From Staphylococcus phage vB_StaM_PB50, in the sequence record OR770614.1: a DNA stretch of 64,000 bases; one strand, written 5' to 3'. Shown here in pieces: positions 8,577 through 62,701 of the stretch. Under the pieces are notes generated by a model. The model did no database searches, was not told where the DNA came from, and was given only the letters and a program-made list of their open reading frames with translations. The position numbers and the translations under genes were made by a program. The first letter of the stretch is position 1. Each line of letters opens with the position of its first letter.

Positions 8577-8588
8577 TATAAATTTGTT
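8577..8588 (-). promoter_or_regulatory. AACA-N6-TA late-promoter-like motif upstream of capsid candidate
   Basis: Minus strand AACAAATTTATA ~60 nt upstream of ATG 8516. Confidence 0.35.
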
Positions 8589-8700
8589 AAGAAATAAAAT
8601 AACCATTATATTCAAGGGTATTTTTACTTTCATATGTTATTGTTATTAAATTTAAAAAGAATAATAAAACTATTATTAAAAGTAATTAAATTCATTTATT

Positions 8701-9390
8701 TTACTTTTTACTACGCTTTTTTGTACTTTCTAACTTATTGTATTCTTTTAAATAATTGTCAAATATTTCTTTGTAAGTATTTTCAAATTTTTTATATAAC
8801 TTCTCAGATTTATCTACATCGACAATATTTATAAATTTATTGTTAAATAAATTTATATTATCTTTAAGTTGATCAAGAGATTTTGTAGTTAATTCAGTTA
8901 TATCAAACATATCTTTTCTCTCTGAATCTGAAAAATTATCCATATTTCTATCATTGATAATGTAATTAAATTTGTCCATTACATCTTTTAATTCAATTAA
9001 TTTATTAAATATTTGTAATTTTAAAAACTTATCTGAATTACTTTCTTTGGGTTCTTCAGGTGTTTCTTCTGGAGTTTCTTCAGGTGTTTCTTCTGGATTA
9101 TCTGTGTCAGTTTCTTCAGCTTCAGGTTGTTCAGGATCACTATCTAATTCATCTTCATTTTCTTCTTGATCTTCTGTAGAATCATCACTAGAATCATCAT
9201 TAGAATTATCTTCTTCAGTTTCTTCGTTATTCTCTTCTTCTGATGAAGTTGATTCAGTATCATCTAATGAATTCTGATCTTGATTATCTTCATCACCTTC
9301 AGCTTCATTAAGAATATTTTGTTTCATTAGTTTATTTATTGATTCAGTTAGTAAATCTCTATTAATATCCATAGTCATTACCACTGTCAT
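8701..9390 (-). CDS. highly acidic protein, scaffold-like
   Basis: 229 aa, D/E/S-rich with EETPEETPEETPEE repeat; between coiled-coil protein and capsid candidate. Confidence 0.4.
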   Translation of the reverse strand: MTVVMTMDINRDLLTESINKLMKQNILNEAEGDEDNQDQNSLDDTESTSSEEENNEETEEDNSNDDSSDDSTEDQEENEDELDSDPEQPEAEETDTDNPEETPEETPEETPEEPKESNSDKFLKLQIFNKLIELKDVMDKFNYIINDRNMDNFSDSERKDMFDITELTTKSLDQLKDNINLFNNKFINIVDVDKSEKLYKKFENTYKEIFDNYLKEYNKLESTKKRSKK

Positions 9391-10399
9391 TTACATCTCC
9401 ACGAGAGATAGCATTTTTAGTTTTATCTATAGCTTTCTTTTGGAAATTTGCTTTTTTCAATTGACCTTCTAAGTCTGATTTTAATATTCTTAATTCTTTT
9501 CTCTTTTGTTCATTATCAGTTGAATCGATTTTATTTTCTAATGATTGAATTCTTTCTTCTAGTACAATAATTAATCTATTAAGTTCACTATTTTTAGTAC
9601 TATTATACACAATAGCAACCAATAATCCTAATAAAGCAGTTTTAGCTTTACCAATAACACCAGCACTTACTTCTAATCCAATACAGAAGATTATTGCTGT
9701 TAAAATAGCTCTTACAAAACGAATTCTATTTGCTTTAGCTAATTGTTTGTCATCCATATTTTTAGATGAAGCAGTAGCTTTCTTAACAGAACCAATTAAT
9801 TTATTTAAATTCTTTTCAGCAACTTTAGGTTCTTTAGAGGTTTCAAAGCTACTATCAAGACCATCAAGATAATCTTCATCATCGTCATCATCATAAGCTT
9901 CATTAAGATAATTCATACTACCTTCCATTAAGAAGTTAATAACAGCTTTTCTTTCTAATTTAGAACCAGCAGGACTTTCAGCTAAAGCTACAGTTAATTG
10001 TTTAAAATTAAATTCTACACTTTTATTTGAACTAAAATCTTCTTTATATAAACTATCAATATAACCATTATTAGGAATACGATTATTAATATAAAGTGTA
10101 TTATATCTATCTTTAAGAGTTTCTATTTTATGAAGAACCATATTTATTGCCATTTCAGATTGTTCATTTTCAATTTCGTATCTTTCTAATGAATCTTTAA
10201 TACCTACTAGATATTTTACAATTTTTCTAATTTGATCATTCGTAAAACTATCAATATTAGCATACTTCTCAATATCAACTAAATAATCATAAGCTTCATT
10301 AGGAAAAGAATTTTCATCCGTTTGTTCTTTAATATTAAGTAATATATCTTTTACTTCTTCAAAACTTTTCAAAGATTTTCCTCCTATCATATATTTCAT
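9362..10399 (-). CDS. hypothetical coiled-coil protein with one TM segment
   Basis: 345 aa ORF; hydrophobic ILTAIIFCIGLEVSAGVIGKAKTALLGLLVAIVY; late-promoter-like motif upstream. Confidence 0.4.
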   Translation of the reverse strand: MKYMIGGKSLKSFEEVKDILLNIKEQTDENSFPNEAYDYLVDIEKYANIDSFTNDQIRKIVKYLVGIKDSLERYEIENEQSEMAINMVLHKIETLKDRYNTLYINNRIPNNGYIDSLYKEDFSSNKSVEFNFKQLTVALAESPAGSKLERKAVINFLMEGSMNYLNEAYDDDDDEDYLDGLDSSFETSKEPKVAEKNLNKLIGSVKKATASSKNMDDKQLAKANRIRFVRAILTAIIFCIGLEVSAGVIGKAKTALLGLLVAIVYNSTKNSELNRLIIVLEERIQSLENKIDSTDNEQKRKELRILKSDLEGQLKKANFQKKAIDKTKNAISRGDVNDSGNDYGY

Positions 10400-10404
10400 T
10401 AATC

Positions 10405-10419
10405 TAATAAAAGATTGTT
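10405..10419 (-). promoter_or_regulatory. AACA-N6-TA motif (minus-strand member of divergent pair)
   Basis: Minus strand AACAATCTTTTA 18-30 nt upstream of ATG 10399. Confidence 0.35.
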
Positions 10420-10433
10420 AAATTCAGAAGAAT

Positions 10434-10445
10434 AACATAGAAATA
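10434..10445 (+). promoter_or_regulatory. AACA-N6-TA motif (plus-strand member of divergent pair)
   Basis: AACATAGAAATA 42 nt upstream of protease ATG 10487. Confidence 0.35.
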
Positions 10446-10486
10446 TTCTTAATTTACAATCAAAATTTGAAAGGAAGTATAAATAG

Positions 10487-10709
10487 ATGTCTAAAGATAT
10501 TAAAGCTTACATTATTAATGAATCTAATACAACTTCTCAACCAGAAGTAGTTCAAGATAATAACAAATCAGTTAGATTCATTGCTGAATTACAAGAAGCT
10601 GATAGACAAAACCGTAATGGTCGTGTTTATCGTAAAGATGTTATACAAAGTGGATTAGATAGTCCAGTAGTACAAGAAAAATTAGCAAGAAGAACTTTTT
10701 ATGGTGAGT
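10487..10709 (+). CDS. prohead protease, exon 1
   Basis: ORF 10487-10714; exon end set by P1 pairing GGUGAGU with intron GCUCAC; NGRVYRKDV... prohead-protease-like. Confidence 0.5.
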
Positions 10710-10876
10710 TTTAGGTTAAAATGGCTCACGTTAAATTATATTAATTGCTGAAATCTTATTTAAAGTAATCAGCATCAACTTAATACAAGTTGTTCAACGA
10801 CTAAATATATAACTTAATTTAATTAAGAAGATATAGTCTAATCTATATAAAATATAAATATAGATAATATAAGCAG
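10710..10876 (+). mobile_element. group I intron, ORF-less (~170 nt)
   Basis: P AATTGCTGAAA, Q AATCAGCATC, R GTTCAACGACTAAAT, S AAGATATAGTCTAA, P9 hairpin ATCTATAT...ATATAGAT, terminal G ~10876. Confidence 0.6.
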
Positions 10877-11139
10877 GTCATCCTTTAAGTGATGAACCTA
10901 AACGTCAAATGTATATTGATCAACGTAATATTTCTCATATTATCACTAGAACTTGGTGGAATGGTAATAAATTAATGGGAGAAGTAGAAACAGCTCAAAC
11001 AGCAGCTGGTAAAGATATGAAAGGTTTAATTGGACAAAAGTCTGATGTATCCTTCTCAATGCGTGGTTTTAGTAAAATAGAAAGAAAACCTAATGGTGAA
11101 GTAGAAGTTACTAAACCTTTAAGATTAATCTGTTACGAT
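10877..11139 (+). CDS. prohead protease, exon 2
   Basis: Open frame ...HPLSDEPKRQMYIDQRNISHII... (ORF 10909-11145 plus upstream extension); 3' boundary approximate. Confidence 0.45.
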
Positions 11140-11322
11140 AAATAACTCTGTCGCTTCTTAAAGCAATTTAAGTCGAATAATATTATTAATTGCTGAAAAG
11201 AATTCATTAAATTAATCAGCATCCTCAAAAAGAGGTTCAACGACTAAATATAATATACTTAATTTATTAAGTAATGATATAGTCTAGTCTATATGAAATT
11301 CATATAGTTAATATAAACGTGG
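11140..11322 (+). mobile_element. group I intron, ORF-less (~180 nt)
   Basis: AATTGCTGAAAAG, AATCAGCATC, GTTCAACGACTAAAT, AATGATATAGTCTAG, hairpin CTATATGA...CATATAG; frame reopens at 11323. Confidence 0.55.
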
Positions 11323-11673
11323 GTAGTAATTCCATCACATCAAGATTCTTATATCCAAAATATAATTTCAGAGAATCATAATAATTACAATACTAGTGAT
11401 TTACAAATGGTTAATGAATCAATTGATATGTTTTCTAACGGTAAAGTTACAGAATTTTCTCCTAGAGAAGTTTTAACTTATATTAAAGAAAATTCAGACA
11501 ATATCAAATATATCGCTGAAGATATGGGATTTGATAAAGCTGATGAATCTAATATCATTTACGATAAAGGATCTCAATTAGCTTCAATTAAAGAAAGTAA
11601 TAAAACTATTAAAGTTTTCTTAGAAGAATCTGTTCTTAATGGACTTGATGATTTCTATAGAAACTTTAAATAA
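11323..11673 (+). CDS. prohead protease, exon 3
   Basis: ORF 11407-11673 with in-frame stop-free extension back to 11323 (VVIPSHQDSYIQ...). Confidence 0.45.
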   Translation, partial: VVIPSHQDSYIQNIISENHNNYNTSDLQMVNESIDMFSNGKVTEFSPREVLTYIKENSDNIKYIAEDMGFDKADESNIIYDKGSQLASIKESNKTIKVFLEESVLNGLDDFYRNFK

Positions 11674-11696
11674 TATGTATGGAAGTGATATAGTTT

Positions 11697-12410
11697 ATGA
11701 TAACTAATACAGAAGTACTTAATTATATAGAACGTGATACAGGATTTCTGTTTAATGAGTTAGAACTAAATCCTGATGAGATTATTAAAACAGTAGAAAG
11801 ATTTACAATTCCTACTTTTAGTAAATTTCATCCTAAACAAGAAAGAATAATAGTAAAGCCTGAAGATAAAGTAGAAGGAACTCAGAATGTTTATTATATT
11901 GATTCACCAAATCCAATAGTTAATATTAATAGAGTGATTGGTGCTAATAACAATATTTCTAATTTAACTGGGTATGCTGGTAGTATGAGTCCTTATGCAG
12001 GTTTTATGATGGGCTCACCTATTGACTCTCAAATGATGGCAGATTTAATGGCTATTAATTTAAATCCATCTACATTTAGATATCTTCATCCTAATAAAAT
12101 AGAGATAATGAATGGATCTGTTATGAGTACAACTAATCTATTAATAATTGCAAATACTTATCATGATAAACATTTTGGTTCAATACCAAATAATATGCAT
12201 GATTACTTTTTAGAATTAGCTTCATATGATGTTCAAATGTCATTATACTCTATGAGAGGTAGATTTCAAAATTTACAAACTACTTTTGGTGAATTAAATC
12301 TAAATATGGATGATTTAAGAGATGCTAGAGAAAAAAGAAGAGAATTAGTTGAAAAAATGGAAAATAACTCTATTTATAATTCTAATAGAAAAAAATTATT
12401 TTTCGGATAA
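11697..12410 (+). CDS. hypothetical protein (head module)
   Basis: 237 aa ORF directly after protease gene; terminator follows. Confidence 0.4.
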   Translation: MITNTEVLNYIERDTGFLFNELELNPDEIIKTVERFTIPTFSKFHPKQERIIVKPEDKVEGTQNVYYIDSPNPIVNINRVIGANNNISNLTGYAGSMSPYAGFMMGSPIDSQMMADLMAINLNPSTFRYLHPNKIEIMNGSVMSTTNLLIIANTYHDKHFGSIPNNMHDYFLELASYDVQMSLYSMRGRFQNLQTTFGELNLNMDDLRDAREKRRELVEKMENNSIYNSNRKKLFFG

Positions 12411-12414
12411 TAAA

Positions 12415-12455
12415 ATCCCAATACCTATTAATTTAGGTATTGGGATATATTTTTA
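12415..12455. terminator. bidirectional rho-independent terminator
   Basis: ATCCCAATACCTA/TAGGTATTGGGAT perfect 13-bp stem flanked by T-runs on both strands, between convergent genes. Confidence 0.55.
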
Positions 12456-12608
12456 GGATAAGGGAGTAATGGATATGGATAAAATTAAAGAACTTTGTAT
12501 AAGTAATTTCATTATAACTATACGCTAATTTATTACTTAAAAAGGAATAAATTATAGAAAAATAAATTTCTATAAAAATTTGTTACAATACTAATTTATA
12601 TCATAAAT

Positions 12609-13193
12609 TTATTTCATTACATTATACATATTAAATTGATTTTTTAATCTTTGCTTATCAAATTTAATCATTGATTTAGTTTCAAAACGGTTTGTATTAA
12701 GTTTATCAATATAATCATCTGAATATATTTCATCTATTAATTTTATTTCATGAAAACTAAGTCTATGTCTTTTAGCTAAAGGAATTAATAATTTATCAGA
12801 TAAATGTTTAAACATTCTAGTTTCAGGATTATATAAACTAAAATCATCAGATATAGCTATTAGAATACTATTTCTATATTTTTGAGGTATGATACCTTTA
12901 TCTGCTAATTCTTGTAAATAATAACTAGGTTTATAATCTGATAGTGCTTCTATAACTACATAATCCTTGTCTATCAATTCAACGAAATAATGCATAGGTA
13001 AAGCTCTTATATTAGCATGTCTGATTAAATAATTCTGAACTTTACCCCAAGAATATTTGTAAGATCCCTTTAATATATTTCTGTCATCAAATTTATTTTC
13101 TTTAAGTATTAAATTATTCATATGTGTAATAACTACATGGGTTTGAAATGTATTACTTCTTCTACGTCTATCTTGTTTTATATCATAATACAA
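12609..13193 (-). CDS. hypothetical protein, possible cell-wall hydrolase
   Basis: 194 aa; co-transcribed with PG-binding-domain protein; weak amidase-like His pattern only. Confidence 0.3.
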   Translation of the reverse strand: MYYDIKQDRRRRSNTFQTHVVITHMNNLILKENKFDDRNILKGSYKYSWGKVQNYLIRHANIRALPMHYFVELIDKDYVVIEALSDYKPSYYLQELADKGIIPQKYRNSILIAISDDFSLYNPETRMFKHLSDKLLIPLAKRHRLSFHEIKLIDEIYSDDYIDKLNTNRFETKSMIKFDKQRLKNQFNMYNVMK

Positions 13194-13217
13194 TCTTTAT
13201 TTCACTTCTTTCTAAAA

Positions 13218-13886
13218 TTAGCAATAACTAATTGAATTATATTTCTCTATCAATTTATTAAATGTAATAGGACCAACGTCTCCATCTTGTTTAAGATTAT
13301 TATCACTCTGAAACTGTAATAAAGAACTTAACATAGTTCTATCAAATACATAGTTTTCACTATCGTATTTATTAGCAGAATACCCCAAACCTGTCAGTGC
13401 GATACCTACTGTATTAACATCATTACCTTTCATGTTATCTTCTCTATACATTAATAATCTGTAATAACTTCCTTTAAGATTTCTATTATTTGAAATAATT
13501 GGTTCTTCAGGTTTATATTTTCTAGGTAAATGCATATCATAGTAATAAGGAAATTTAGGATTACCATTATGGAATTTAAGTATAACTTTATCATAAAGGT
13601 TAGGTTTTCTTAAAGGTTTATCTAAATCATTATCCATTAATGGTTGACAAATTAAATAATTACCTATGTCTACTTGACTTCTTATATCTAAATCTTCTAC
13701 GTTTATTATATTATTAATATTTAGGTTTCTTTTGATATTTCTTGGGGAATCCTGCAATTCAGTCATAATAAGTTCATACACAAATAGCTTTACTTCATAC
13801 TTTTTATCAAAATCTGCATTATCTATAACTACAGCTTCGAAGTCTCGACCAAAATCGAATTCTTTAAACGATTCTTTATATTGCAT
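13218..13886 (-). CDS. protein with C-terminal peptidoglycan-binding domain
   Basis: C-terminus LLQFQSDNNLKQDGDVGPITFNKL matches PG_binding_1 consensus. Confidence 0.45.
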   Translation of the reverse strand: MQYKESFKEFDFGRDFEAVVIDNADFDKKYEVKLFVYELIMTELQDSPRNIKRNLNINNIINVEDLDIRSQVDIGNYLICQPLMDNDLDKPLRKPNLYDKVILKFHNGNPKFPYYYDMHLPRKYKPEEPIISNNRNLKGSYYRLLMYREDNMKGNDVNTVGIALTGLGYSANKYDSENYVFDRTMLSSLLQFQSDNNLKQDGDVGPITFNKLIEKYNSISYC

Positions 13887-13928
13887 GTGCTTTATGAGCT
13901 CCTTTCTATTTATAATGCATCGAGGGGG

Positions 13929-13940
13929 AAATGTCTTGTT
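13929..13940 (-). promoter_or_regulatory. AACA-N6-TT motif
   Basis: Minus strand AACAAGACATTT ~45 nt upstream of ATG 13886. Confidence 0.25.
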
Positions 13941-14154
13941 ACAGTTAGTCTTACTATGCCTCTTTATTTATTTTTTGATTTTTAGTTTTCCACTGATTTT
14001 AGGTTATTTTAGAATTACTAAACAGTTGAATTCTTTAAGAGAAAAATTAACAAAAATAGAAAAGGAAACAAATAATCAAAGAAATTTAATTTTCAGATTA
14101 TCTAAGTTTAATGAAGCTCTTTTAGAAGAAATAAAAGAACAAGAAAAAGATAGG

Positions 14155-14192
14155 CAATAAAAATCCACAACGATAATAAAATATCGTTGTGG
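14155..14192 (-). terminator. rho-independent terminator
   Basis: CCACAACGATA/TATCGTTGTGG 11-bp stem then TTTTTATT on minus strand, after gene 14204-15040. Confidence 0.5.
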
Positions 14193-14203
14193 GAATTATT
14201 GCA

Positions 14204-15040
14204 CTAAATATAAATAATATATTCTATATCTAAACCATCAGATAGATTCTTTAATGAACGACTATCAAATGTTAAACGTGTAGCTAATTCAGTTCCATCA
14301 AATTTATTAGTATCTTCATTATATTTAGCTAACCAAAGACCTAACTCATTAATAATACTTCCTCTACATTCATCTGGTTCTACAGACATTTTTAATGAAA
14401 ATGCAACTGAACCATCTTCATTATCAATAATAAATCCTTTTGATTCACCTAAAGGTTTATCTTTTGTAGCATTAGTAAATCTTTTACCGTAAAAACTAGT
14501 AGTGCCATCTTGTTTATCTTCTGATAAATAATATTTTTTCTTTTGTTGTTCTGATAATTCTTCTACCATACTAGGATTATTTGCAGTTAAATCCGAATTC
14601 TCTTTATCGGGATTTTCTACTACAAAAGGAACAGGACGGTTTAATTTTTGATCTGAGAATTTTACAGTGTATGGAGTAAATGCAGAGTTATTTACATCAG
14701 CTCCACCTGAACCTACTGAAAATAAGCATATTGTTCTTCCTTCAGTTTCATCACCATTATAATTAGACGGTATACCTTGACCGAATAGTTTTTCTAAAAT
14801 CCAAACTCTAGTTCTCATTAAAACTAAATTTTCTTCTTGATGAATTAACTCACCTGTTTTAGGATTTGTAAATTTAACAATACCCTTAATATAATTATTT
14901 AAATTTTCTTTAAAACCAGATTTTACATTTATAGAATTTGAATCTCTTGTTTCAACTCTAGAACTTATATCATCTATTTGATCTTGTTCCATAGCTCCAT
15001 TTTCAACTAATTTACGTGAAAAACGTTCAAAATTGAACAT
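14204..15040 (-). CDS. hypothetical late/structural protein
   Basis: 278 aa ORF overlapping stop/start with upstream 854-aa gene. Confidence 0.4.
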   Translation of the reverse strand: MFNFERFSRKLVENGAMEQDQIDDISSRVETRDSNSINVKSGFKENLNNYIKGIVKFTNPKTGELIHQEENLVLMRTRVWILEKLFGQGIPSNYNGDETEGRTICLFSVGSGGADVNNSAFTPYTVKFSDQKLNRPVPFVVENPDKENSDLTANNPSMVEELSEQQKKKYYLSEDKQDGTTSFYGKRFTNATKDKPLGESKGFIIDNEDGSVAFSLKMSVEPDECRGSIINELGLWLAKYNEDTNKFDGTELATRLTFDSRSLKNLSDGLDIEYIIYI

Positions 15041-17604
15041 TAATTTTCCTCCCTTTTGATTATTGAAATGTTAACATTGTCTTTCATTTCAATATTTTCT
15101 TTTCTGATGATCTTATCAGTTATATTTCTATTATCTAATGTATTAATCTTATCTACATATTTTGTAGTTCCAGTATATTTAATATTTCCTTCATCAATTA
15201 AATGAATACTATTTTCAAATTTATCATCCAATTTAAATAATAGACTTGTATAAATTAAATCAGTTGTATATGATTTGAATAGAGTTATCAATATAGTAAT
15301 ATAATCTCTAATAAAATTAACAACACCTACAAAATTACTATTTGTGAAGTATTGTTCTTTAAGATTAAGATGATTATCAATACTACTTACTAATTCAAAT
15401 ATTCTTTCTCTAAAAATATTTTCTCTATCAAAAACATCTTCATCATAAATTTCACTTTCAACAACTGTATAATAATACAAATCAGGTTCTTTAAATTTAA
15501 GATAATCTGAATAAGTTTTAAAACCTTTAAAAATATCATTACTAGAATTAGTTATAAATAGCTGTTTATGGAGATTAGTAAATTTTTTTCGTAAATGAGG
15601 ATCATTTGAATTATATATTAACTCTTCTAATTCTTTACGAAATTCTTCATTATATTTATACATTTCAATAATATCATAAATGTTAATAAGATCTTTATCA
15701 GAATCACTGTAAGCTAATATATCACTGATGTAAGAATTTAAAGCTGGATATCTAGTTATTTTCTTTTTAGGAGTGTATAATTTATTCTTAATTGAATAAT
15801 CTATTGATCTTCTTATAGATGTTACTAAATTATCTATATTTTCTTCATTTTTATTTTGTTTATAATCTTGATAAGATTTATCTAAAAACTTAACATTCAT
15901 AACTTTAACAAATTCATCAATATCTTTATCAATAGAATTATCTTCTATCATAATTAAATATACATCTTCTTTATTTATACGACCATCACGAATCATTACA
16001 TTTAAAAATTTTTTGTATATTTCCATAAAGTTCTTATAGTAAGATATATTTTTAAAATCAAATTCTCTTTCAGGTTTAGATATCTGTGTCCACAAATATC
16101 TCATACCATCTATAATTAAATCATTTTCAATATAGTATTCTAATTGCGTAGAACCATTTATACCGGTCATTATTTCTGAAATAAATTTAAATTGTCTTTG
16201 AGCTAAATCAGACATTTCATATTCTTTAACAATATCTTCATAGCTTAGCGTATTTCTATTTTTAAATTTCTTAATATTAAGGAAATTTAGTTCTCTAGCA
16301 AAATCAGTGTAATCTGATTTATCAAATTGTCTGGAATAAATATAACTACGAATATCATCTACGGTATCTTTAATATCTGCATTAAAATTATAACCATAAA
16401 TATTCATATTCTTATCATTCTTGATTCTATCATTCCATTTAATATAATTTATGACAAGTGTATTAAGTGTAACAATTCCATCAAAAACATTAAACTTTCT
16501 AGAACTGATTCTTGAGTTAGTCATATTAAAGCTATCATCTTCAATAATATCTTTATCTTCTTTCATTAAGTTAATTAAACTGTATAAGAATGATAAAGAT
16601 TTACTATTATTAATTATATCTATAACAGCATCGGTAGAAAGATATTTAGTTTGTATTACATTAAATGCTTTATTCATAACTTCTTCTTTAGTATTTCTCC
16701 AGTATGGATCAAGATCAATGATTTCATTATAACCGTATTGATTATCATTGTATACATCAAGATTATCATTTACATTTGTTTTATAAAACTTTAGATCATC
16801 TTCATGTTTAGCCAAATAATATTTATTAATGTCTATGGAGTTAATGGAGAATATATCTTCTATAATTGGAAATATCTCATTTGTACCTTTATTACGAATT
16901 AAATCATTTATGCGTTTGTATGTTCTTCTTTGATATTCTAAAGGGAAATCATCAAAGTAATCAAGTCCATTAGAAATGAAAGCATTCTTTAAATCTCTTT
17001 TAGTATATCTATCAACATCAAATACTCTATACATTGTTTTGTTTATATATCTATGTATAGTTGCATTAATTAAATACATATAATACATTTCTCTATAATA
17101 AACTTGATTATTAAAAGCTCTAGTATGTGTTACTTTTTTAAAATAATTAAGAGCTTCAGAATAACTTTCTAATAATAATGATTCTTCTTTTTTATCCAAT
17201 GTATGGTTACTTATTTTAATGATATCAAAATCATTTGCTGTACGTGATACATATGGATCAATATCATATATATTTTGTAATTTTCCATAGTATGGATTAC
17301 GTTCTTTATAGTTTCTTAAAATACTATCTTTATCAAATACTGAATAGTAATCATCTAAAGTGTTTTCTTTAGCTCTAATATATAAATCTGACTTCATCAT
17401 AGAATCATTTGATTCTAATCTATCTGCAAATTCTTGATCTTTTATTATTAAACCTTGACAGAATTTAACTATATCATCTAAATTTTCTATATCTTCTTCA
17501 GTAAAGGCTTTATAAAAATAAAGAGGATTGTATTTTCTTAAATCATCTTTACTGAAGTTCTTATAATCAGTGTATTCTATGGCCATTGAAATCCTCTCTT
17601 TCAT
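15040..17604 (-). CDS. hypothetical large late protein (854 aa)
   Basis: Long ORF, late-promoter-like motif upstream, first gene of the minus-strand late block. Confidence 0.45.
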   Translation of the reverse strand: MKERISMAIEYTDYKNFSKDDLRKYNPLYFYKAFTEEDIENLDDIVKFCQGLIIKDQEFADRLESNDSMMKSDLYIRAKENTLDDYYSVFDKDSILRNYKERNPYYGKLQNIYDIDPYVSRTANDFDIIKISNHTLDKKEESLLLESYSEALNYFKKVTHTRAFNNQVYYREMYYMYLINATIHRYINKTMYRVFDVDRYTKRDLKNAFISNGLDYFDDFPLEYQRRTYKRINDLIRNKGTNEIFPIIEDIFSINSIDINKYYLAKHEDDLKFYKTNVNDNLDVYNDNQYGYNEIIDLDPYWRNTKEEVMNKAFNVIQTKYLSTDAVIDIINNSKSLSFLYSLINLMKEDKDIIEDDSFNMTNSRISSRKFNVFDGIVTLNTLVINYIKWNDRIKNDKNMNIYGYNFNADIKDTVDDIRSYIYSRQFDKSDYTDFARELNFLNIKKFKNRNTLSYEDIVKEYEMSDLAQRQFKFISEIMTGINGSTQLEYYIENDLIIDGMRYLWTQISKPEREFDFKNISYYKNFMEIYKKFLNVMIRDGRINKEDVYLIMIEDNSIDKDIDEFVKVMNVKFLDKSYQDYKQNKNEENIDNLVTSIRRSIDYSIKNKLYTPKKKITRYPALNSYISDILAYSDSDKDLINIYDIIEMYKYNEEFRKELEELIYNSNDPHLRKKFTNLHKQLFITNSSNDIFKGFKTYSDYLKFKEPDLYYYTVVESEIYDEDVFDRENIFRERIFELVSSIDNHLNLKEQYFTNSNFVGVVNFIRDYITILITLFKSYTTDLIYTSLLFKLDDKFENSIHLIDEGNIKYTGTTKYVDKINTLDNRNITDKIIRKENIEMKDNVNISIIKREEN

Positions 17605-18096
17605 TTATTTTTCTTAATATTTAGTTGTTACTTGAGAATTTATATTTTTATCAAATAAAAAATAATATATTATTATATTTCTATCAAAATATAATAATAT
17701 ATTTATTATGATTTTTAATTTTTTATATTAAAATTGGTATTAATAAATATATTAAATTAAAAATTATAATGAAATTCATACAAATAAAATTAACTTAATA
17801 ATATATTAATGAAGATTATTAAAATTAAAGAAATGAAATATTTATACAAATTTTTTTAGAAAATCTCCAGAATATATTATTATATTTTTAATATAAAATT
17901 ATATAAATAATAAATAAATATTTTTTAGGGGAATAATTTTTAAAATTTTCTTTAATTTTAATTAATATTATAAAAAATAATAGTAATTAAAAATATTATT
18001 AAAAATAAATTAATATATTAAATTTAATAAAAGAAAATTTCAAAGAAAAAGTAATAATGAATTTGATATTAATTAATAAAAAGGAATTGAATAAAA
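17605..18096. other. 490-bp ORF-free, AT-rich divergent control region (replication origin not excluded)
   Basis: No ORFs on any frame, >85% A+T, short direct repeats AATATATTATTATATTT at ~17655 and ~17870; separates minus late block from plus-strand block. Confidence 0.4.
17628..17639 (-). promoter_or_regulatory. AACA-N6-TA motif
   Basis: Minus strand AACAACTAAATA ~25-35 nt upstream of ATG 17604. Confidence 0.35.
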
Positions 18097-18732
18097 ATGG
18101 ATAATAAAAATATTGATATAAAATTCAATAACTTAAATAATAAAAAAGTAAAGTTAAATAAAAATAATAAGATCAATAATGTATTAATAAAAAAAGATTC
18201 TAATAATAATACAATATTAGTAAATAAACAAAGTAAGTTTCAAATATCAAGTTTATACTTTGAAATAGAATCAGAAAATAGTTTAAAGAAATTCATCAAG
18301 AATGTAGAAGGATTAGTAAGAAGATCAAATGAATATAAGAAATATTTATCAATATTAAAAGAAGGATACAATTTGAAAAATGATATAATAATGTCAAATA
18401 TTACAGAAGATATGGCAACTACAGAATATCATCACTTTCCTTTTACTCTTTATGAAATTGTTGAAATTGTTACAAATAAAGCTATCATGGAAGATGAACA
18501 GTTTACATCAATAGATATAGCTGAAAGAGTTTTAAAATTACATTTTGAGAATAAAGTAGGATTAGTATTATTAACAAAAACAAATCATCAATTAGCTCAT
18601 GCAGGTAAGATTATAATACCATTATCATCAATATTTGGTAAAGTAAATGAATTTGTAAGTTATTATAAAGACTATATACTTGATCATCAAATAGAACAGT
18701 ATAATGAACTTATAGAAGCTTCAGATATATAA
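18097..18732 (+). CDS. hypothetical protein
   Basis: 211 aa ORF, Asn/Lys-rich N-terminus; HHFPF...NHQLAH His-rich pattern. Confidence 0.35.
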   Translation: MDNKNIDIKFNNLNNKKVKLNKNNKINNVLIKKDSNNNTILVNKQSKFQISSLYFEIESENSLKKFIKNVEGLVRRSNEYKKYLSILKEGYNLKNDIIMSNITEDMATTEYHHFPFTLYEIVEIVTNKAIMEDEQFTSIDIAERVLKLHFENKVGLVLLTKTNHQLAHAGKIIIPLSSIFGKVNEFVSYYKDYILDHQIEQYNELIEASDI

Positions 18733-18750
18733 ATTTTTAATATTTATTTT

Positions 18751-18788
18751 AAATATATATTATATAAATGTAAATCATTAAAGATTTA
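18751..18788 (+). promoter_or_regulatory. early-type promoter motif + leader hairpin
   Basis: AAATATATATTATATAAATG followed by hairpin TAAATCATTAAAGATTTA, 28 nt before ATG 18816. Confidence 0.4.
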
Positions 18789-18815
18789 TATATTATATAA
18801 AAATTAGGAGATGAA

Positions 18816-19607
18816 ATGGATATGACAGAAGAAGCTTTAATCAAGGCTATATATTTATTTAAGGAAGATAAGAAAGATATTGAAATTGATATAGCTAAAA
18901 ATATTATGGATGAACTTAAAGAAGAGGATAATCGAAAAGAATTTGATGATTTAGAAAGAAGATTAATCAATATTGAAGATACAAAAACATTTAGAGATTT
19001 TTATAGTTTTAAAATGATTAGAAGAAAATCAGATTTTATTAAAGGAATTGCTTTTGATAATTTTAATGATTTCTTTTTAGATAGTTTAGAACTTAATAAA
19101 GATTATAACTTTGCTAAAAATATATTTGAATTTTTAACAATCTTAAGAAAACAAGATAAATCAGAAATGTTTCCAGATGGAAAAGAAAATATTGAAGATA
19201 GATTAATTGCATTAATGTCTAGTTATATTACAGAAGAATATAATAAGAAATATAATTTAAATTATTATAATATATACAATATTATGGTAGCTACTTATAT
19301 TGATATGTATATTTTCTTCTATAAAGAAGAATTAATGAACGGTAATAATATTTTAGAATTAAAAGAAGAATCTAATGAAATTAAATTATTCTCTGAAAGT
19401 TATATTAATGATTTCTTAAATGAATCTATAAAAGCTACAGAAATATTTGATGAAATTAATAGTAGTATATTAAAGAATTTTCCACCACAAGTTAAACCTG
19501 ATATTAATAGTTTACTACATGAAATTAAGAAACAAGCAAGTAAAATTGCTAATGAAAATAATGTAGACATGTCACTAGTAAATACTCTAATTGAATATAA
19601 AAAATAA
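18816..19607 (+). CDS. hypothetical protein
   Basis: 263 aa ORF with RBS AGGAGATG. Confidence 0.4.
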   Translation: MDMTEEALIKAIYLFKEDKKDIEIDIAKNIMDELKEEDNRKEFDDLERRLINIEDTKTFRDFYSFKMIRRKSDFIKGIAFDNFNDFFLDSLELNKDYNFAKNIFEFLTILRKQDKSEMFPDGKENIEDRLIALMSSYITEEYNKKYNLNYYNIYNIMVATYIDMYIFFYKEELMNGNNILELKEESNEIKLFSESYINDFLNESIKATEIFDEINSSILKNFPPQVKPDINSLLHEIKKQASKIANENNVDMSLVNTLIEYKK

Positions 19608-19618
19608 TTAATAAAATT

Positions 19619-19666
19619 GAGGTAATGATCATTAATTTGATCATTACCTCTAATATTTTTTTTTTC
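19619..19666. terminator. rho-independent terminator (copy 1 of a 48-nt unit)
   Basis: GAGGTAATGATCATTAATTTGATCATTACCTC then TAATATTTTTTTTTTC; between convergent genes. Confidence 0.6.
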
Positions 19667-20928: not shown

Positions 20929-20959
20929 ATATTTACCTACTTTCTATTATCATTATAAT

Positions 20960-20971: not shown

Positions 20972-21002
20972 GAGTAATTTTTTAAAGTGCATTATTAACT
21001 TT

Positions 21003-21030: not shown

Positions 21031-21039
21031 AATTTAAAA

Positions 21040-52905: not shown

Positions 52906-52962
52906 ATTAGAAAGATAATTAATATTTTATCTTTCTTCATTATTATAATATATACTTATTTT
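52906..52962 (-). promoter_or_regulatory. early-type promoter motif + leader hairpin
   Basis: Minus strand AAGTATATATTATAATAATGAAGAAAGATAA..TTATCTTTCT then AATTAATGGAGG. Confidence 0.4.
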
Positions 52963-53904: not shown

Positions 53905-53962
53905 TTAAGATATATCATTATATATTATATATCTTCATTATTATAATATATATTTAAATAAA
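53905..53962 (-). promoter_or_regulatory. early-type promoter motif + leader hairpin
   Basis: Minus strand TTTAAATATATATTATAATAATGAAGATATAT..ATATATCTT then AAAAAGGAG RBS. Confidence 0.4.
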
Positions 53963-55924: not shown

Positions 55925-55988
55925 AATTTAATATAGGTAATGAGCGTTATAATATTTGCTCATTACCTATTTATAATATATATTTATT
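55925..55988 (-). promoter_or_regulatory. early-type promoter motif + leader hairpin
   Basis: Minus strand AAATATATATTATAAATAGGTAATGAGC..GCTCATTACCT. Confidence 0.35.
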
Positions 55989-58133: not shown

Positions 58134-59861
58134 CATTTATCTTAACCTACATTTAATATATAGGATGAGACTATATCTTATGGTTTCCCATTTATATATT
58201 TAGTCGTTGAACCTTATAATTAGGATGCTGATTAGTTTCAAACTGTCCCAGCAATTAATATGATTTATTGAAGGCAATAAATCAATAAATTTTATAATTC
58301 ATTAAAATATTTCCGCTATTCCAAATTCGATAAACACCCGATTGTTTTTTAGGAAAATCTGAGTATTCCATGTTTTCATTAATGTAATTTGGAAAGTATT
58401 CTGGTATAATAGATTTTTCAAATTCATGAACTGAATAAATATTTCTTTTAAAAATTATTTTACATGTAGATTTTAATTCTTTAACATAATTAAAACCAAA
58501 ATCTTTGAAATATTTACCATCAGAATAATCTTTATTTATTATTAAATCTATTGTTTTTATATTGTTTCTTTTGAAATATTTAATTGAATTACTTAATAAT
58601 TTAAATAAACCACCATTTACAATTGTTTTATTACTAAAAGCAAATTTTTCTAATTTAACTTTATTCTTATTTATATAATTATATGACATAATTGCAATTA
58701 TTTCATCATTAATTTTTAATGAAAAATTAATATCATGAGAGGAATTTATATAGGTACTATTATTTTTATAGAAGTTTTTAGCGTCATAATCGTTAATTAT
58801 TTCAAAATTACATTCTCTAGCATTTATTTTCTTTTCTTGAAAATAATCTATAGAATACAATATCCTATTAATTATTAAATCTTTTTTAAACTCGTAATCT
58901 AATGAGTTAATAAAATATATTTCAATATCAAAATTATTTTTAAAAAAATCTTTCTTATGTTTATGATATTCTTTATTTTTCATTTTATCTGAATGATAAT
59001 AGTATCCATTAAATTCAAATCCTATTTTTTTATCTGGAAAGAATAGATCTACTTCATATATTTGATCATTAAAAGAGAATCTTTTGTTATTTAAAATAAT
59101 TCCTTTATATGATTCTTTTATATATTTTATTAATTCAATTTCTTGATTAGATTTAATATTTTTACAAAGAGGACATCTATATCCTTGTTGAAAGTCATTA
59201 ACTCTTACACTATAAATATTACCACATTTTTTATGTTTTATTGGATATTTTTCTTTATTATTGAATTTATAATTTAAATCCAACCATTCATATTCATTAC
59301 CATCTTTAGATTCAGATAATATTTTTATTAAATAATTTTCATCATCTTTATAATAATATTTACCTCTTTTTTTATTTGAACAAAAAGGACATCTTCTTTT
59401 CTTATTTCCCAAAAATAAGCGTGGTTCTACTTTATATTCATTTCCGCATATTTCATGTCTTAATAAAACTTTATCGCTACCATTTTTATTAAAACCTTCT
59501 ATATAAGTATAATCTTTATTTTCTTTTTTAATTTCTTCAAAAAAGTCTTTATCCGATATATTTTTATAATTTCTAGCTTTTTTATTCCCTTCATTTTTAA
59601 AACATTTCGGACATCTTCCTTTTCCTTCATTTAAGAAAATATTACCTTTAGATACTCTATATTCTTCACCACAAATTTTATGTTTTAAAATAAAAGGCTT
59701 TGAAGTTCCCTCATAATTGCTTATTAATTCATAATTATTATTATCTATATTTTTTATTTTGTTTATTACATCTTCTTCTGTTAATTTAGGTGGCATAAAC
59801 TCATCCTTTCAATTAATTATTAAGGAGGTTTATTTAAATTTATTTTTTATTGATAATTTTT
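58134..59861 (-). mobile_element. group I intron with homing endonuclease gene, inserted in beta-prime catalytic motif
   Basis: 5' splice after ...GADYDG (U at 59862); ORF 59796-58282; then P AATTGCTGGGAC, Q AATCAGCATCC, R GTTCAACGACTAAAT, S AAGATATAGTCTC and terminal G. Confidence 0.6.
58282..59796 (-). CDS. intron-encoded endonuclease (Zn-ribbon repeats + DUF559/Vsr-like domain + C-terminal extension)
   Basis: 504 aa; repeated C..C/H..C..C modules as in terL intron ORF; YEVDLFFPDKKIGFEFNGYYYHS nuclease-like segment. Confidence 0.5.
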   Translation of the reverse strand: MPPKLTEEDVINKIKNIDNNNYELISNYEGTSKPFILKHKICGEEYRVSKGNIFLNEGKGRCPKCFKNEGNKKARNYKNISDKDFFEEIKKENKDYTYIEGFNKNGSDKVLLRHEICGNEYKVEPRLFLGNKKRRCPFCSNKKRGKYYYKDDENYLIKILSESKDGNEYEWLDLNYKFNNKEKYPIKHKKCGNIYSVRVNDFQQGYRCPLCKNIKSNQEIELIKYIKESYKGIILNNKRFSFNDQIYEVDLFFPDKKIGFEFNGYYYHSDKMKNKEYHKHKKDFFKNNFDIEIYFINSLDYEFKKDLIINRILYSIDYFQEKKINARECNFEIINDYDAKNFYKNNSTYINSSHDINFSLKINDEIIAIMSYNYINKNKVKLEKFAFSNKTIVNGGLFKLLSNSIKYFKRNNIKTIDLIINKDYSDGKYFKDFGFNYVKELKSTCKIIFKRNIYSVHEFEKSIIPEYFPNYINENMEYSDFPKKQSGVYRIWNSGNILMNYKIY

Positions 59862-60974
59862 ACCATCATAGTCTGCACCCATACCAGCAAGTATATTATT
59901 ACTGATACCTACTACTGATGATTCTATATCTTGAATTATATCTTTAATTTTTAATATTTGAACTGAGCTTTCACTAATACTGGGATTTCTATTTAAAATA
60001 ACTCTCATTCCATTTTCAGTTTTATCAACTAGTTCTCTCATATATTTATATACTTTAGGATTAAATGTATCTAATGCTCTGTCTAATATTTCTTCACCTT
60101 TAGCTAAAGGAATATTTTCTGTTACATACATTAAATTTGCTAAGATAGGTTTATATACTTCTAAGAAGATGGTATAATTTAATCTAATTTCATTTAATTT
60201 AAGGTCAGGTGCTGGAACAATTACTGAACGTGCAGAGAAACCAACACGACTACCCATTAGTAATTTACGAATAGTTCCACCTTTACCTTTAATATTCTCA
60301 TTAATTACACGATCACTAATATTAATACTATCATCTTGAATTTTACTTAATAGATTTAATTTTTGTAACTCTACTGAATCATCTGTATAATGTCTATCAA
60401 GTTCTTTAATACTATTACTATGAGCAATTAATAAATTATAATCTTTATTAATTTCAGAATGTCTAAAAGTTTTAGTAGCTTTATTAACTGTAGCAGGTCT
60501 TAATTTAGGACTAAATACAGTTACATAATTTTGGAATAGTAAATCAGATAAATACCATTGTACTACTCTATTGTAATCTTTAGTTTTACGTTTTTCACGT
60601 TTAACTTCTTCTTTAAGAATTTTTAAGAAATTCTTTCTAAATTCAATTAAACCAATATAAGAGTTATGATCATCTTCAGGTTCAATTACATTACCATTTT
60701 CATCAATAGGTTTTTCAGAACTAATAATTTCTTGGAATCTTTTATTACCAATTAATTTTTTAACACGTTCATAACCTAACGGATTTAAAATATAATTATT
60801 ACCTAAATCTACAATAGCTTCATTAGTAATATTATCTGCTTCTGAATCAGGACCGAAGATTTTCTCACTGAAGATACCATCTTCAGTGAAATCACCTTTC
60901 TTATCAATTGATTCATGATTAGTTACAACTGGAACATTTTCTAAATCCTTTTTCTTGAGTAAAAATCTAACCAT
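59862..60974 (-). CDS. RNA polymerase beta-prime-like N-terminal fragment, exon 1
   Basis: GKGGTIRKLLMGSRVGFSARSVIVPAPDLKLNEIRL matches beta-prime [24 protein letters not shown]; ends ...NILAGMGADYDG (NADFDGD). Confidence 0.65.
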
Positions 60975-60977
60975 AAC

Positions 60978-62600
60978 TTAATCTTCTCCTTCTTCTACAA
61001 TTTCTTTAATGTCCATAATAACTTCCTGATCATCATTTTCTTTCTCTAATTTATCAATATTTTCAATATCTTCAATTTCTTTGATATTAGGTTTATTTTC
61101 AAAATAGAATGAACCATTCTCACCAGGATCTTTAACTTCACAGAATGGAGTTAACGTACGAGTAATACCTGGATTATTTGATGAAGTAGCAATCAAATCA
61201 ATTCTACCGAAATAAGTGTTATTGATATTGATTGTTCTAATAGATGGTTTACTAGTGTCTACAGCTGATTGTGGACCTGCTTTAGTCATTTTAAGAATTC
61301 TAGTAAATAAATCAATTGTATTAACTGCATTAGAATAACGTATACCATCAGAAGTTCCAATAGTTTTCAATAGATAATCTCTAGGTACTCCTGAGAATAA
61401 ACCTTTAAGGTTTTTAATAGTACGTTTTTTATCTGAGAAGTTAATCATACGGTAAGATGTATCAGAATTTTTTCTATTCAGTGGATAAGTTAAGTATTCT
61501 AATACTCTTAATCGTTTATTAGCTAAATCTGTATTATCTAATAAGTTAAGATTATCAAAGTTCTTAAACATGTATTTAACCACATGATAAGTTGATTCTT
61601 TATCTTCTTTTTCTAATCGTGATATAGCTTGAGTACGACTATCTAATATACGATCAAATGAAAGTATCATTGAATTCGCTTTATCTATTTTAGTGTCAAT
61701 ATTAGTTGAACCACTGAAGATAGAACCTAAAGCCTTTAACCAGAATTCTCTATCGTATATTTTATCTAATCCAGCTCTCATTCCTTTGAATAAATCTTTA
61801 ATACAAAGGATCATAGAATTTCTATAACGATCATCAACATCTAACCATTCTTTTTCAACTTTTAAAGAAAGTTTATTATTAATTTTAAAGTAATAGTAAT
61901 TATCTTCTTTATCATCATTAATATCTATTACTTCACAATGGTCTTTAATTTCTAAAAATTCAAATGTTTCGTCAAATCCCATTTTTGCAACAAAGAACAT
62001 AAATGCTGGAACACTCTTATTTTTATTGAACACTTCTAGATATAGAGTTCTCCCTCTTTGGAAATTAGACATCTTATTATCGTCATCCATAATAGTGTCT
62101 TTTTTAGAACCATTGACTGATAGTGGTTGCAATAAGTTTTTCATTACTACAGTACTAGCTTTTGGTTTATAAAATTCAGCATCAGCTAATTGTAGAATTG
62201 GGAAAAATTTGTTATTATTGATATAGTAGTATTGACCTTCAATAAGTTCAGGGAAATCTAATTTGTGTGTATATTCTTCTTTATTACCTTCTGAATCTTC
62301 AAATTCTACTGTAATTTGAACTTCCAGTAATTTAGATTCTTCAACATTGATTTTTCTATAATCTTTAGATTTAAGTTGTTTATCTGTCATTTGATTATAT
62401 TCATAAACCTGACTTGGTGAAACAACTTTACAATCTAAGAATTTAATTCCTTTAATAAATTCTACTGATCGATAAATATCTGAAATGATTTTTTCTAAAC
62501 TTTCATTTTGTCTGAAATAAATTACGTCTTCGTTAAATGGTTCTTTTTTGCTAATGTCTTCGTTGATGTTCTTTGTAACTTTACTTAAGTATTTACTCAA
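60978..62600 (-). CDS. RNA polymerase beta-like N-terminal fragment
   Basis: 540 aa; KAGPQSAV...YFGRIDLIATSSNNPGITRTL parallels beta SALGPGGL...HYGRVCPIETPEGPNIGLI; GQYYYINNNKFFPILQL resembles GxFIINGxERVxxSQL. Confidence 0.55.
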   Translation of the reverse strand: MSKYLSKVTKNINEDISKKEPFNEDVIYFRQNESLEKIISDIYRSVEFIKGIKFLDCKVVSPSQVYEYNQMTDKQLKSKDYRKINVEESKLLEVQITVEFEDSEGNKEEYTHKLDFPELIEGQYYYINNNKFFPILQLADAEFYKPKASTVVMKNLLQPLSVNGSKKDTIMDDDNKMSNFQRGRTLYLEVFNKNKSVPAFMFFVAKMGFDETFEFLEIKDHCEVIDINDDKEDNYYYFKINNKLSLKVEKEWLDVDDRYRNSMILCIKDLFKGMRAGLDKIYDREFWLKALGSIFSGSTNIDTKIDKANSMILSFDRILDSRTQAISRLEKEDKESTYHVVKYMFKNFDNLNLLDNTDLANKRLRVLEYLTYPLNRKNSDTSYRMINFSDKKRTIKNLKGLFSGVPRDYLLKTIGTSDGIRYSNAVNTIDLFTRILKMTKAGPQSAVDTSKPSIRTININNTYFGRIDLIATSSNNPGITRTLTPFCEVKDPGENGSFYFENKPNIKEIEDIENIDKLEKENDDQEVIMDIKEIVEEGED

Positions 62601-62689
62601 TTATCCGACACTCTCCCTCTTGGTAATAAAAAACTTTATAAGTTATGAGTTATTTCTGTTTTTTATTTTTTTATAAAATGAAAACTCAT

Positions 62690-62701
62690 AACAATATTAT
62701 A
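62690..62701 (+). promoter_or_regulatory. AACA-N6-TA motif
   Basis: AACAATATTATA ~80 nt upstream of HU-like gene start. Confidence 0.3.

Follow-up and report, generated by a model that had tools for sequence, protein, structure and literature searches.

AACA-N6-TAT sites ahead of structural and lysis genes of Staphylococcus phage vB_StaM_PB50 as probable late promoters of the AR9 type

The sequence considered here is a stretch of 64,000 nucleotides from Staphylococcus phage vB_StaM_PB50 (sequence record OR770614.1), referred to below as the window, and the element under study is a short motif, AACA-N6-TAT, that recurs ahead of structural and lysis genes and resembles the late promoters of Bacillus phage AR9. 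According to its sequence identities, the window (~25 % GC) is DNA of a staphylococcal jumbo phage from the Machias/AH12/MarsHill/S6 group, whose members are relatives of AR9. Positions 20000-40000 are 89 % identical to AH12 and ~85 % identical to MarsHill, PALS_2, S6 and DC4, and the identity to Machias within these positions amounts to 96 %, with coverage limited to 30540-40000. Positions 6850-20000 are 98.6 % identical to Machias, with which the window also shares a 100 % identical capsid protein. Since the identities to Machias and AH12 differ by segment and the capsid is that of Machias, the window is by these comparisons a Machias/AH12-like mosaic. Uracil DNA has been shown for S6 and was inferred for MarsHill-like phages (bioRxiv 10.1101/2020.12.14.422802).

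The structural and lysis genes, including the holin gene, the RusA gene and a split terminase gene with an HNH endonuclease, occupy positions 1-38154 of the window, whereas positions 38343-62600 form a minus-strand block of small genes, a primase gene and two RNA polymerase genes. An RNA-seq study of phage SA1 assigned the holin, RusA, a type II DNA-binding protein (ORF76) and the structural genes to the late class, and the two polymerase genes and the primase to the 'middle' class (PMC9414953); these classes were taken only for genes named in the text of that paper. The genes of the window that are relevant here, among them two attributed to the non-virion RNA polymerase (nvRNAP), are as follows:

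6921-8516 (-), major capsid precursor gene
10487, start (+), prohead scaffold/protease gene
15040-17586 (-), gene of an 848-aa virion structural protein, with a PHROG match
21504-29849 (+), 2781-aa tail-fibre gene
31040-32633 (+), operon with a membrane protein and the holin
32763-33392 (+), RusA gene
33989-36985 (+), 998-aa tail-fibre gene
59847-60974 (-), predicted beta' N-terminal (beta'N) subunit gene of the nvRNAP (PDB 7S00/7S01 chain d, AR9 beta', E = 2e-58)
60978-62600 (-), predicted betaN subunit gene of the nvRNAP, homologue of AR9 gp105 (PDB 7S00 chain c, E = 6e-73)
62784-63095 (+), gene of an HU-like DNA-binding protein (Pfam Bac_DNA_binding)

The candidate sites are given below, together with predicted transcription starts that were placed on the A of TAT by homology with the AR9 start site (ORF, open reading frame):

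3583-3597 (-), candidate late promoter AACATTCTTTTATCA, predicted start 3586, of an HNH homing endonuclease gene (2551-3561; PHROG HNH match)
8574-8588 (-), proximal candidate late promoter AACAAATTTATATAA of the capsid gene, predicted start 8577
8630-8644 (-), distal second candidate late promoter AACAATAACATATGA of the capsid gene, predicted start 8633, 117 nt before the gene
10405-10419 (-), candidate late promoter AACAATCTTTTATTA of gene 9362-10372 (336 aa), divergent partner of the next site, predicted start 10408
10434-10448 (+), candidate late promoter AACATAGAAATATTC of the scaffold/protease gene, other half of the divergent pair, predicted start 10445
12570-12584 (-), AACA-N6-TAT site between convergent genes, immediately past the stop codon of 12609-13193, no ORF downstream
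13929-13940 (-), weak candidate AACAAGACATTT before 13218-13886, ending in TT, not TA
17615-17629 (-), candidate late promoter AACAACTAAATATTA of the 848-aa virion protein gene, predicted start 17618
20956-20971 (-), variant-spacing candidate AACA-N7-TAT (AACATTTTTATTATTA) before 19666-20928
21463-21477 (+), candidate late promoter AACACATTAATATCA of the 2781-aa tail-fibre gene, predicted start 21474
29850-29864 (+), candidate late promoter AACATATTTATATAA of 29896-30255, predicted start 29861
30776-30790 (+), AACA-N6-TAT site AACAAATATATATGA at the head of a ~150-nt unit without ORF, closed by the terminator 30904-30932
30985-30999 (+), candidate late promoter AACAATGATTTATAA of the 31040-32633 operon, predicted start 30996, directly 3' of the terminator 30904-30932
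32712-32732 (+), block TATAACGTTAWTATTATAAAT with a possible deviant promoter AACG-N7-TAT (motif 32715-32730), ~35 nt before RusA and after the terminator 32656-32685
33936-33950 (+), candidate late promoter AACATTCTCTTATAA of the 998-aa tail-fibre gene, predicted start 33947
38193-38208 (-), variant-spacing candidate AACA-N7-TAT before 37540-38154
38238-38252 (-), second AACA-N6-TAT near 37540-38154, unconserved
62690-62704 (+), candidate late promoter AACAATATTATATCA of the HU-like gene, predicted start 62701, divergent from the betaN gene

A first-pass annotation had listed eleven sites of the form AACA-N6-T(A/T) ahead of late genes. Nine of these were found exactly in place, namely 8577-8588, 10405-10419 (core 10408-10419), 13929-13940 and 20960-20971 on the minus strand and 10434-10445, 21463-21474, 29850-29861, 30985-30996 and 62690-62701 on the plus strand. 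The other two had been displaced: 17628-17639(-) reads ATTCTCAAGTAA, the true motif AACAACTAAATA lying 10 nt away at 17618-17629(-), and 33934-33945(+) reads AAAACATTCTCT, the true motif starting 2 nt further on at 33936. The sites at 3597(-), 8644(-), 12584(-), 30776(+), 38208(-) and 38252(-) were not part of that list. The catalogue places the motif ahead of the genes for the capsid, the protease, the virion protein, both tail fibres, the holin operon and the HU-like protein, including a divergent gene pair. Several of the sites are preceded by intrinsic terminators, as would fit separate transcription units.

For the enrichment analysis, the published AR9 consensus AACA-N6-T[AG] was used as the a-priori pattern and searched in sense orientation in upstream regions of at most 150 nt and at least 40 nt, with 2000 dinucleotide shuffles of these regions serving as the null model. 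In the late part of the window 11 of 22 upstream regions carried the pattern, compared with 2.7 +/- 1.5 in the shuffles, and none of the 2000 shuffles (0/2000) reached 11. The early block yielded a single region out of 21 versus 1.0 expected, which corresponds to chance level and agrees with the earlier claim that the motif is absent upstream of early genes, where the motif TATATATTAT-N6-G is present instead. Sense matches outnumbered antisense matches in the upstream regions of the window and of AH12. The window contains 12 intergenic, sense-oriented AACA-N6-T[A/G] sites, and the predicted start of the proximal sites is located 25-83 nt ahead of the start codon in 13 genes of the structural part. 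The enrichment applies to oriented late upstream regions and not to the window at large: the loose pattern AACA-N6-T(A/T) has 149 matches on both strands, 120 of them overlapping genes, and its density is not above that predicted from base composition. The claim made for the motif is therefore limited to oriented upstream regions, since most of the 149 matches are located in genes.

An enumeration of all gapped k-mers (4-mer, gap, 2-mer) returned AACA-N7-AT (12 regions) and AACA-N6-TA (11 regions), among fragments of the Shine-Dalgarno sequence, as the top non-Shine-Dalgarno signals of the late set. The early set yielded Shine-Dalgarno fragments along with two pieces of the early promoter, TTAT-N6-GA and TATT-N8-GA. 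Alignment of the sites refined the consensus to AACA-N6-TATNA. With respect to both strands of the window, 15 of the 20 matches to AACA-N6-TAT are intergenic, whereas intergenic DNA makes up 11.8 % of the window and the spacing controls AACA-N5-TAT and AACA-N7-TAT are intergenic in only 2 of 18 and 2 of 11 cases, respectively. Both intergenic N7 matches, 20971(-) and 38208(-), precede genes and are conserved; they may represent spacing variants of a type that is also found in AR9.

Conservation of the sites was examined by footprinting, in which the upstream regions were aligned with those of MarsHill, AH12, PALS_2 and SA1 by means of longer-anchored alignments and each 15-mer was verified by exact search. 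Across nine N6 sites in three lineages none of the 63 columns belonging to AACA and TAT is variable, as opposed to 20 of the 54 spacer columns (Fisher p = 1.9e-8). At most sites the sequence past TATNA diverges, while AACA remains fixed. The proximal site of the capsid gene (8574-8588) is identical in all four relatives, and the distal one (8630-8644) retains AACA and TAT with one spacer change. The site at 10419(-) reads AACAAT followed by CTTT, AGAA or TTTT and then TAT in the three lineages, that at 17629(-) AACAAC followed by TAAA, CTTT or TTTT and then TAT, and at 33936(+) the spacer is TTCTCT, TCAACT or TCATCT between invariant AACA and TAT. Likewise, AACA and TAT are fixed and the spacer varies in three lineages at 30776(+). 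The site 21463-21477(+) is invariant in all relatives, and the adjoining upstream stretch is variable with indels. At 20956-20971(-) the entire stretch is kept in all relatives, and the alternative N6-TT reading fits loosely. AH12 lacks the copy at 29850(+) and carries AACATTCTCTTA ~10 nt further downstream, which on the alignment looks like site turnover. AH12 has no site that matches 3583-3597(-). The match at 13929(-) is shared by the window and AH12 only; it was rejected as a conserved promoter, since it is absent from MarsHill, PALS_2 and SA1, which read TATCA at this position. All five phages share the block TATAACGTTAWTATTATAAAT ahead of RusA, with a single A/T position differing. In AR9 the RusA gene g208 has a mapped late promoter, and deviants with AACT or AACC were mapped as well (PMC5312081); the interpretation of AACG-N7-TAT as a deviant late promoter is speculative.

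Since the TATNA extension had been noticed post hoc, it was tested on fresh DNA, namely ~190 kb of AH12 outside the homologue of the window with 110 upstream regions. This independent set contained the sense AACA-N6-T[AG] pattern in 22 of 110 regions, compared with 10.3 +/- 3.1 in shuffles, and AACA-N6-TAT in 21 of 110 regions, compared with 3.4 +/- 1.8, whereas the N5 and N7 versions remained at background. The intergenic share was 23/30 for AACA-N6-TAT, 13/53 for N5 and 5/31 for N7. Among the 22 AH12 sites found with the a-priori pattern, 21 have T at +2 and 16 have A at +4. The signal recurs in the Listeria phage LPJP1, where N6-TA matches are intergenic in 18 of 47 cases, as against 5 of 64 for N5 and 2 of 53 for N7, and T follows at +2 in 16 of the 18 intergenic sites; some of them form a divergent pair, two are arranged in tandem ahead of the capsid gene, and others precede a tRNA cluster. 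A sequence logo of 31 sites showed T at +2 in 30 and A at +4 in 26 of them, no position above background upstream of -11 and no -35 element at a distance of 16-18 bp.

The late promoters of AR9 were mapped by differential RNA sequencing (dRNA-seq) and primer extension and conform to AACA-(6N)-T-A/G, the last base being the start (PMC5312081). The first-pass annotation had given the template-strand UUGU at -11 to -8 correctly, whereas its start base A/T has to be replaced by the published A/G. The AR9 nvRNAP reads 3'-UUGU-5' on the template strand at -11 to -8 (PMC5449584, PMC9209446), and the purified enzyme needs each of these positions as well as +1, with uracil at template positions -11 and -10 (PMC5449584). 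From the AR9 genome, 37 experimentally mapped late promoters were extracted by means of the coordinates in Table S3. All 37 contain AACA, 35 have T at -1, and the +1 base is A in 30 and G in 6. Position +2 is occupied by A (18 promoters), T (12) or G (7), so that AR9 has no preference for T at +2. The difference from the independent AH12 set at this position (12/37 versus 21/22) is significant (Fisher p = 1.5e-6), whereas that for A at +4 is not (p = 0.10). Starts with G, found in 6 of the 37 AR9 promoters, do not occur in the late upstream regions of the window. T at +2 thus appears in the alignments as a clade-specific extension of the start region that is common to the staphylococcal phages and LPJP1.

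In other respects the sites resemble those of AR9, with AACA, an unconserved 6-nt spacer and T followed by A, without -35-like conservation. The leaders have a length of a few tens of nucleotides (mostly 17-60 nt in AR9), the arrangements include divergent back-to-back pairs, tandem pairs and sites within early operons and before intron endonucleases, and the gene set comprises capsid, protease, HU-like and endonuclease genes in both cases. The likeness extends to the position of orthologous genes. The predicted starts of the divergent pair, 10408(-) and 10445(+), are 37 bp apart, and the mapped starts of AR9 g114, the ortholog of the protease gene, and g115 are 34 bp apart, g114 having a 5' untranslated region (UTR) of 38 nt. 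The capsid gene corresponds to AR9 g117, which has a mapped late start. The HNH endonuclease gene lies inside the split terminase, with a predicted start 25 nt before its ATG, and the AR9 intron endonuclease g079 likewise has its own late promoter and a 25-nt leader. The HU-like gene next to betaN matches AR9 HU g103, located next to betaN g105 and equipped with a mapped late promoter.

The nvRNAP holoenzyme of AR9 consists of gp270, gp154, gp105, gp089 and gp226 (PMC5312081, PMC5449584, PMC9209446), and in the crystal structure the pocket for the uracil at -10 is built from the 2.1bis helix of gp226 (V206, I207) and from betaN gp105 (R363, K375) (PMC9209446). The first-pass annotation had pointed to split RNA polymerase genes in the window, and homologues of both betaN and beta'N of the AR9 nvRNAP were indeed identified. 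The deduced betaN protein is 33 % identical to AR9 gp105 (BLASTP) and R363 is conserved. Homologues of gp226 were detected by tblastn in 9 of 9 staphylococcal jumbo phages, including Machias, AH12, MarsHill and SA1. In the alignment T200, Y202, D204, V206 and W208 are invariant, I or M stands at position 207, and the staphylococcal proteins also retain Y246. The gp226 homologue of LPJP1 shows 34 % identity. The cognate polymerase subunits are accordingly present as in AR9, with V206 of gp226 and R363 of betaN retained.

The early genes carry a different signal. The genome paper on MarsHill and Machias reported an early promoter, TATATTAT, that was found by MEME, whereas a late promoter was not identified and was regarded as hard to predict de novo unless transcript data are at hand (bioRxiv 10.1101/2020.12.14.422802). 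The early consensus of the virion RNA polymerase (vRNAP) of AR9-like phages is AAATATATATTAT-N6-G, as already reported in MarsHill (bioRxiv 10.1101/2020.12.14.422802). The upstream regions of the early block contain TATATTAY starting 63-74 nt upstream and almost no AACA motif. Nine strong matches to A(A/G)(T/C)ATATATTATA(A/T)(A/T)(A/T)A(T/G)G(A/T)(A/G) were located in the window, in agreement with the AR9 early consensus, the motif end being placed 46-66 nt ahead of the start codons:

18756-18770 (+), early-promoter match
42257-42271 (-), early-promoter match
43498-43512 (-), early-promoter match
47058-47072 (-), early-promoter match
51598-51612 (-), early-promoter match
52938-52952 (-), early-promoter match
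53936-53950 (-), early-promoter match
55966-55980 (-), early-promoter match
63904-63918 (-), early-promoter match

Early vRNAP promoters are likewise promoters of a phage polymerase, reside in the same genome and lie at a similar upstream distance as the late motif, with 49-66 nt between the start base that closes the early motif and the start codon, but they differ in sequence and in location, which is the block 38343-62600 and an island at 18097-19607. None of the AACA sites carries the early motif TATATATTAT-N6-G. The two motifs largely exclude each other: upstream regions of AH12 contained the early motif only in 26 cases, the late motif only in 18 and both in 3.

The enrichment, the spacing, the conservation, the replication in other genomes, the positional orthology and the cognate polymerase genes support the proposal, contained in the first-pass annotation, that the AACA-N6-TAT sites are AR9-type late promoters of the phage's nvRNAP, and on the strength of the sequence data and the analogy with AR9 we assign this interpretation a probability of roughly 85 %. 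Under this model, early genes with TATATATTAT-N6-G promoters would be transcribed by the injected virion polymerase, and their products would include the split beta/beta' subunits of the nvRNAP, two of which are encoded at 59847-62600. The nvRNAP, together with the gp226-like, sigma-like subunit encoded elsewhere in the genome, would bind the template-strand 3'-UUGU-5' opposite AACA at -11 to -8, with the uracil at -10 flipped into the pocket between the 2.1bis helix of gp226 and betaN, and RNA synthesis would begin at the A located 6 nt plus T downstream of AACA. The genes for the capsid, the protease, the virion protein, the tail fibres, the holin operon, the HU-like protein and the intron endonuclease would thereby be driven, with leaders of ~25-120 nt. 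The phiKZ nvRNAP provides a related case, its late promoters (TATG, G start) being likewise minimal and start-proximal and served by a split multisubunit polymerase with a gp68/gp226-type subunit; they differ in that the AACA element and the uracil requirement are missing and thymine-containing double-stranded DNA is recognised.

Several observations weigh against this assignment. The core motif is short, and ~120 copies within genes have no obvious function. Two of the sites listed in the first-pass annotation are weak, as 13929(-) is not conserved and 20960(-) fits only with N7 spacing, and a canonical site is lacking for some late-block genes that follow terminators, namely RusA (32763) and 5731-6846. 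On the side of the polymerase, K375 of betaN, which contacts the uracil at -10 in AR9, falls opposite an N that is directly preceded by a K in the HMMER as well as the BLASTP pairwise alignment, and the gp226 homologue is located outside the window, is ~30 % identical to AR9 gp226 and, unlike the latter, is extended by ~120 aa. Furthermore, the start site, the late timing in vB_StaM_PB50, the uracil dependence and the reading enzyme are assigned by homology with AR9. Finally, the start-region TATNA resembles a -10 hexamer, and the intergenic matches at 12584, 30776 and 38331 overlap hairpins, so that conservation at these positions may reflect RNA structure or termination. The last two points lead to alternative explanations.

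The resemblance of TATNA(T) to the -10 hexamer could mean that the sites are promoters of the host sigma-A polymerase, or of host polymerase redirected by a phage sigma-like factor, with TATNA(T) acting as non-template -10 element and AACA as an accessory. TATAAT or a near match indeed follows the spacer directly at 8574-8588, 29850-29864 and 33936-33950, T at +2 and A at +4 are conserved here and not in AR9, and the DC4 paper names a 'Sigma70 factor', UFVDC4_00065; this protein, however, is without any Pfam match. Bipartite sigma-A matches, with a TTGACA-like -35 and a TATAAT-like -10 element 16-18 bp apart, were not enriched (169 versus 174 +/- 13 and 134 versus 152 +/- 13 in shuffles), a -35/-10 match of 10 out of 12 positions is overlapped by only 3 motif sites, and the logo shows neither a -35 element at 16-18 bp nor conservation upstream of -12. 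The conserved upstream element is located at a distance other than that of sigma-70/sigma-A promoters and is read on the template strand in AR9; an invariant AACA 6 nt before the hexamer is the geometry of the AR9 nvRNAP and not a trait of sigma-A. Moreover, transcription from AACA-N6-TA promoters of AR9 by the purified nvRNAP is rifampicin-resistant and requires a uracil-containing template (PMC5449584). Transcription by the host polymerase is thus considered very improbable. Even less credit is given to a chance recurrence of a low-information, AT-rich pattern, an idea that draws on the ~25 % GC genome and on the 149 loose matches at a density no higher than composition predicts, but is opposed by the shuffling result (0/2000), the specificity for N6 over N5 and N7, the bias of sense over antisense matches, the invariance of AACA and TAT around a variable spacer and the recurrence of the signal in independent AH12 loci and in LPJP1.

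An element acting at the RNA level or linked to termination, such as a 5'-UTR element, a processing site or a hairpin, appears unlikely as well, although slightly less so, and would hold for some sites at least. At 12584(-) and 30776(+) a conserved hairpin has its foot at the predicted start, and the motif at 38331(-) is contained in a terminator stem. The downstream leader is also conserved at 8516, 20928 and 38154, and because of this conservation alone cannot separate promoter from UTR at these genes. On the other hand, most sites diverge past TATNA around a fixed AACA, the distance to the start codon (25-117 nt) is too variable for a translation signal, and the identical motif of AR9 is a DNA promoter according to in vitro transcription (PMC5449584) and the crystal structure (PMC9209446). 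RNA-level elements may consequently explain the few hairpin-associated matches (12584, 30776, 38331) but not the whole class.

The ORF-less unit at 30776-30945(+) is a candidate for a small late RNA. The A predicted as +1 also opens an ATG, but the short peptide is not conserved and is interrupted by frameshifting indels in the relatives, whereas the nucleotide blocks TTTCTTTGTTC and TTTTGGCAAAGTCTTCAA are conserved. A hairpin is present at the 5' end of the unit, and compensatory changes occur in the stem of its terminator. The site 12570-12584(-) is a doubtful promoter or might head a small-RNA unit: it has N7 spacing in MarsHill, PALS_2 and SA1 and lies ahead of a conserved AT-rich hairpin, TATAGAAATTTAnnTTTCTATA, and then of the bidirectional terminator 12415-12446. 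Scans of the window with Rfam and for tRNAs gave no match for the ORF-less units or the suspected introns. These units enter into a tentative proposal that we regard as possible, with the odds against it, namely that the nvRNAP of the Staphylococcus/Listeria branch reads a bipartite promoter consisting of UUGU and a start element TATNA (-1 to +4) that is unused by AR9, and that the units 30776-30945(+) and 12584-12415(-) are late small RNAs. If this were true, it would imply a specificity shift of the longer, divergent gp226 homologue, for instance through non-template contacts as with a -10 hexamer or through a strict AU initial dinucleotide.

Several neighbouring features were recorded along with the promoter candidates. 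Perfect or near-perfect bidirectional intrinsic terminators mark two junctions of convergent genes, 12415-12446 and 19619-19650, and another one (38295-38326) separates tandem genes of the minus strand; terminator-like sites are enriched in the window (11 versus 2.7 expected and 7 versus 2.7). The match at 38331(-) was rejected as a promoter, as it sits within a terminator stem. The scaffold/protease gene is broken into the ORFs 10487-10714, 10909-11145 and 11407-11673 (+), here and in AH12. PALS_2 and SA1 have it as a single 843-nt coding sequence, the MarsHill version is interrupted by an intron that harbours a LAGLIDADG endonuclease, and in AR9 the gene is joined from two exons. The breaks at 10487-11673 are probably endonuclease-free intron(s), and a search of this gene gave no Rfam group I/II match at the gathering threshold. 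The large subunit of the terminase is split into an N-terminal part (3869-4531) and a C-terminal part (958-2151) on the minus strand, with the HNH endonuclease gene in between; the AR9 terminase gene g121 is joined from five exons.

The region 4546-6846(-), located between the capsid gene and the terminase gene, comprises two genes (389 aa and 371 aa) without PHROG match, one of which may be an insertion, since SA1 has a single gene there. Gene 5731-6846(-) begins with GTG and lacks a Shine-Dalgarno sequence; past the terminator 6865-6893, no promoter was recognised for it. The versions of the 2781-aa fibre gene in AH12, MarsHill and SA1 are of a different length. With 375 aa, the beta'N ORF is shorter than its DC4 counterpart (436 aa), and it aligns with the AR9 chain over residues 43-396 of 448. 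The ORF is directly followed by a 504-aa HNH endonuclease gene at 58282-59796 (-), and the 3' end of beta'N may have been cut off by an intron/homing-endonuclease insertion at 58282-60974.

In the literature searched, no report of late promoters for staphylococcal jumbo phages was found, and the sites compiled here are the first such set described for these phages. They represent an extension of a known mechanism and not a new mechanism, and since the same motif has already been shown experimentally in AR9, this extension is useful but expected. The conserved map of predicted late promoters indicates how the structural and lysis genes are divided into transcription units in phages that are candidates for anti-staphylococcal therapy, and the clade extension with T at +2 and A at +4 could be used to probe the selection of the start site. 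Moreover, the data lend sequence support to the prediction, derived from the AR9 structure, that template-strand promoter recognition is common to all gp226-bearing phages with uracil DNA (PMC9209446).

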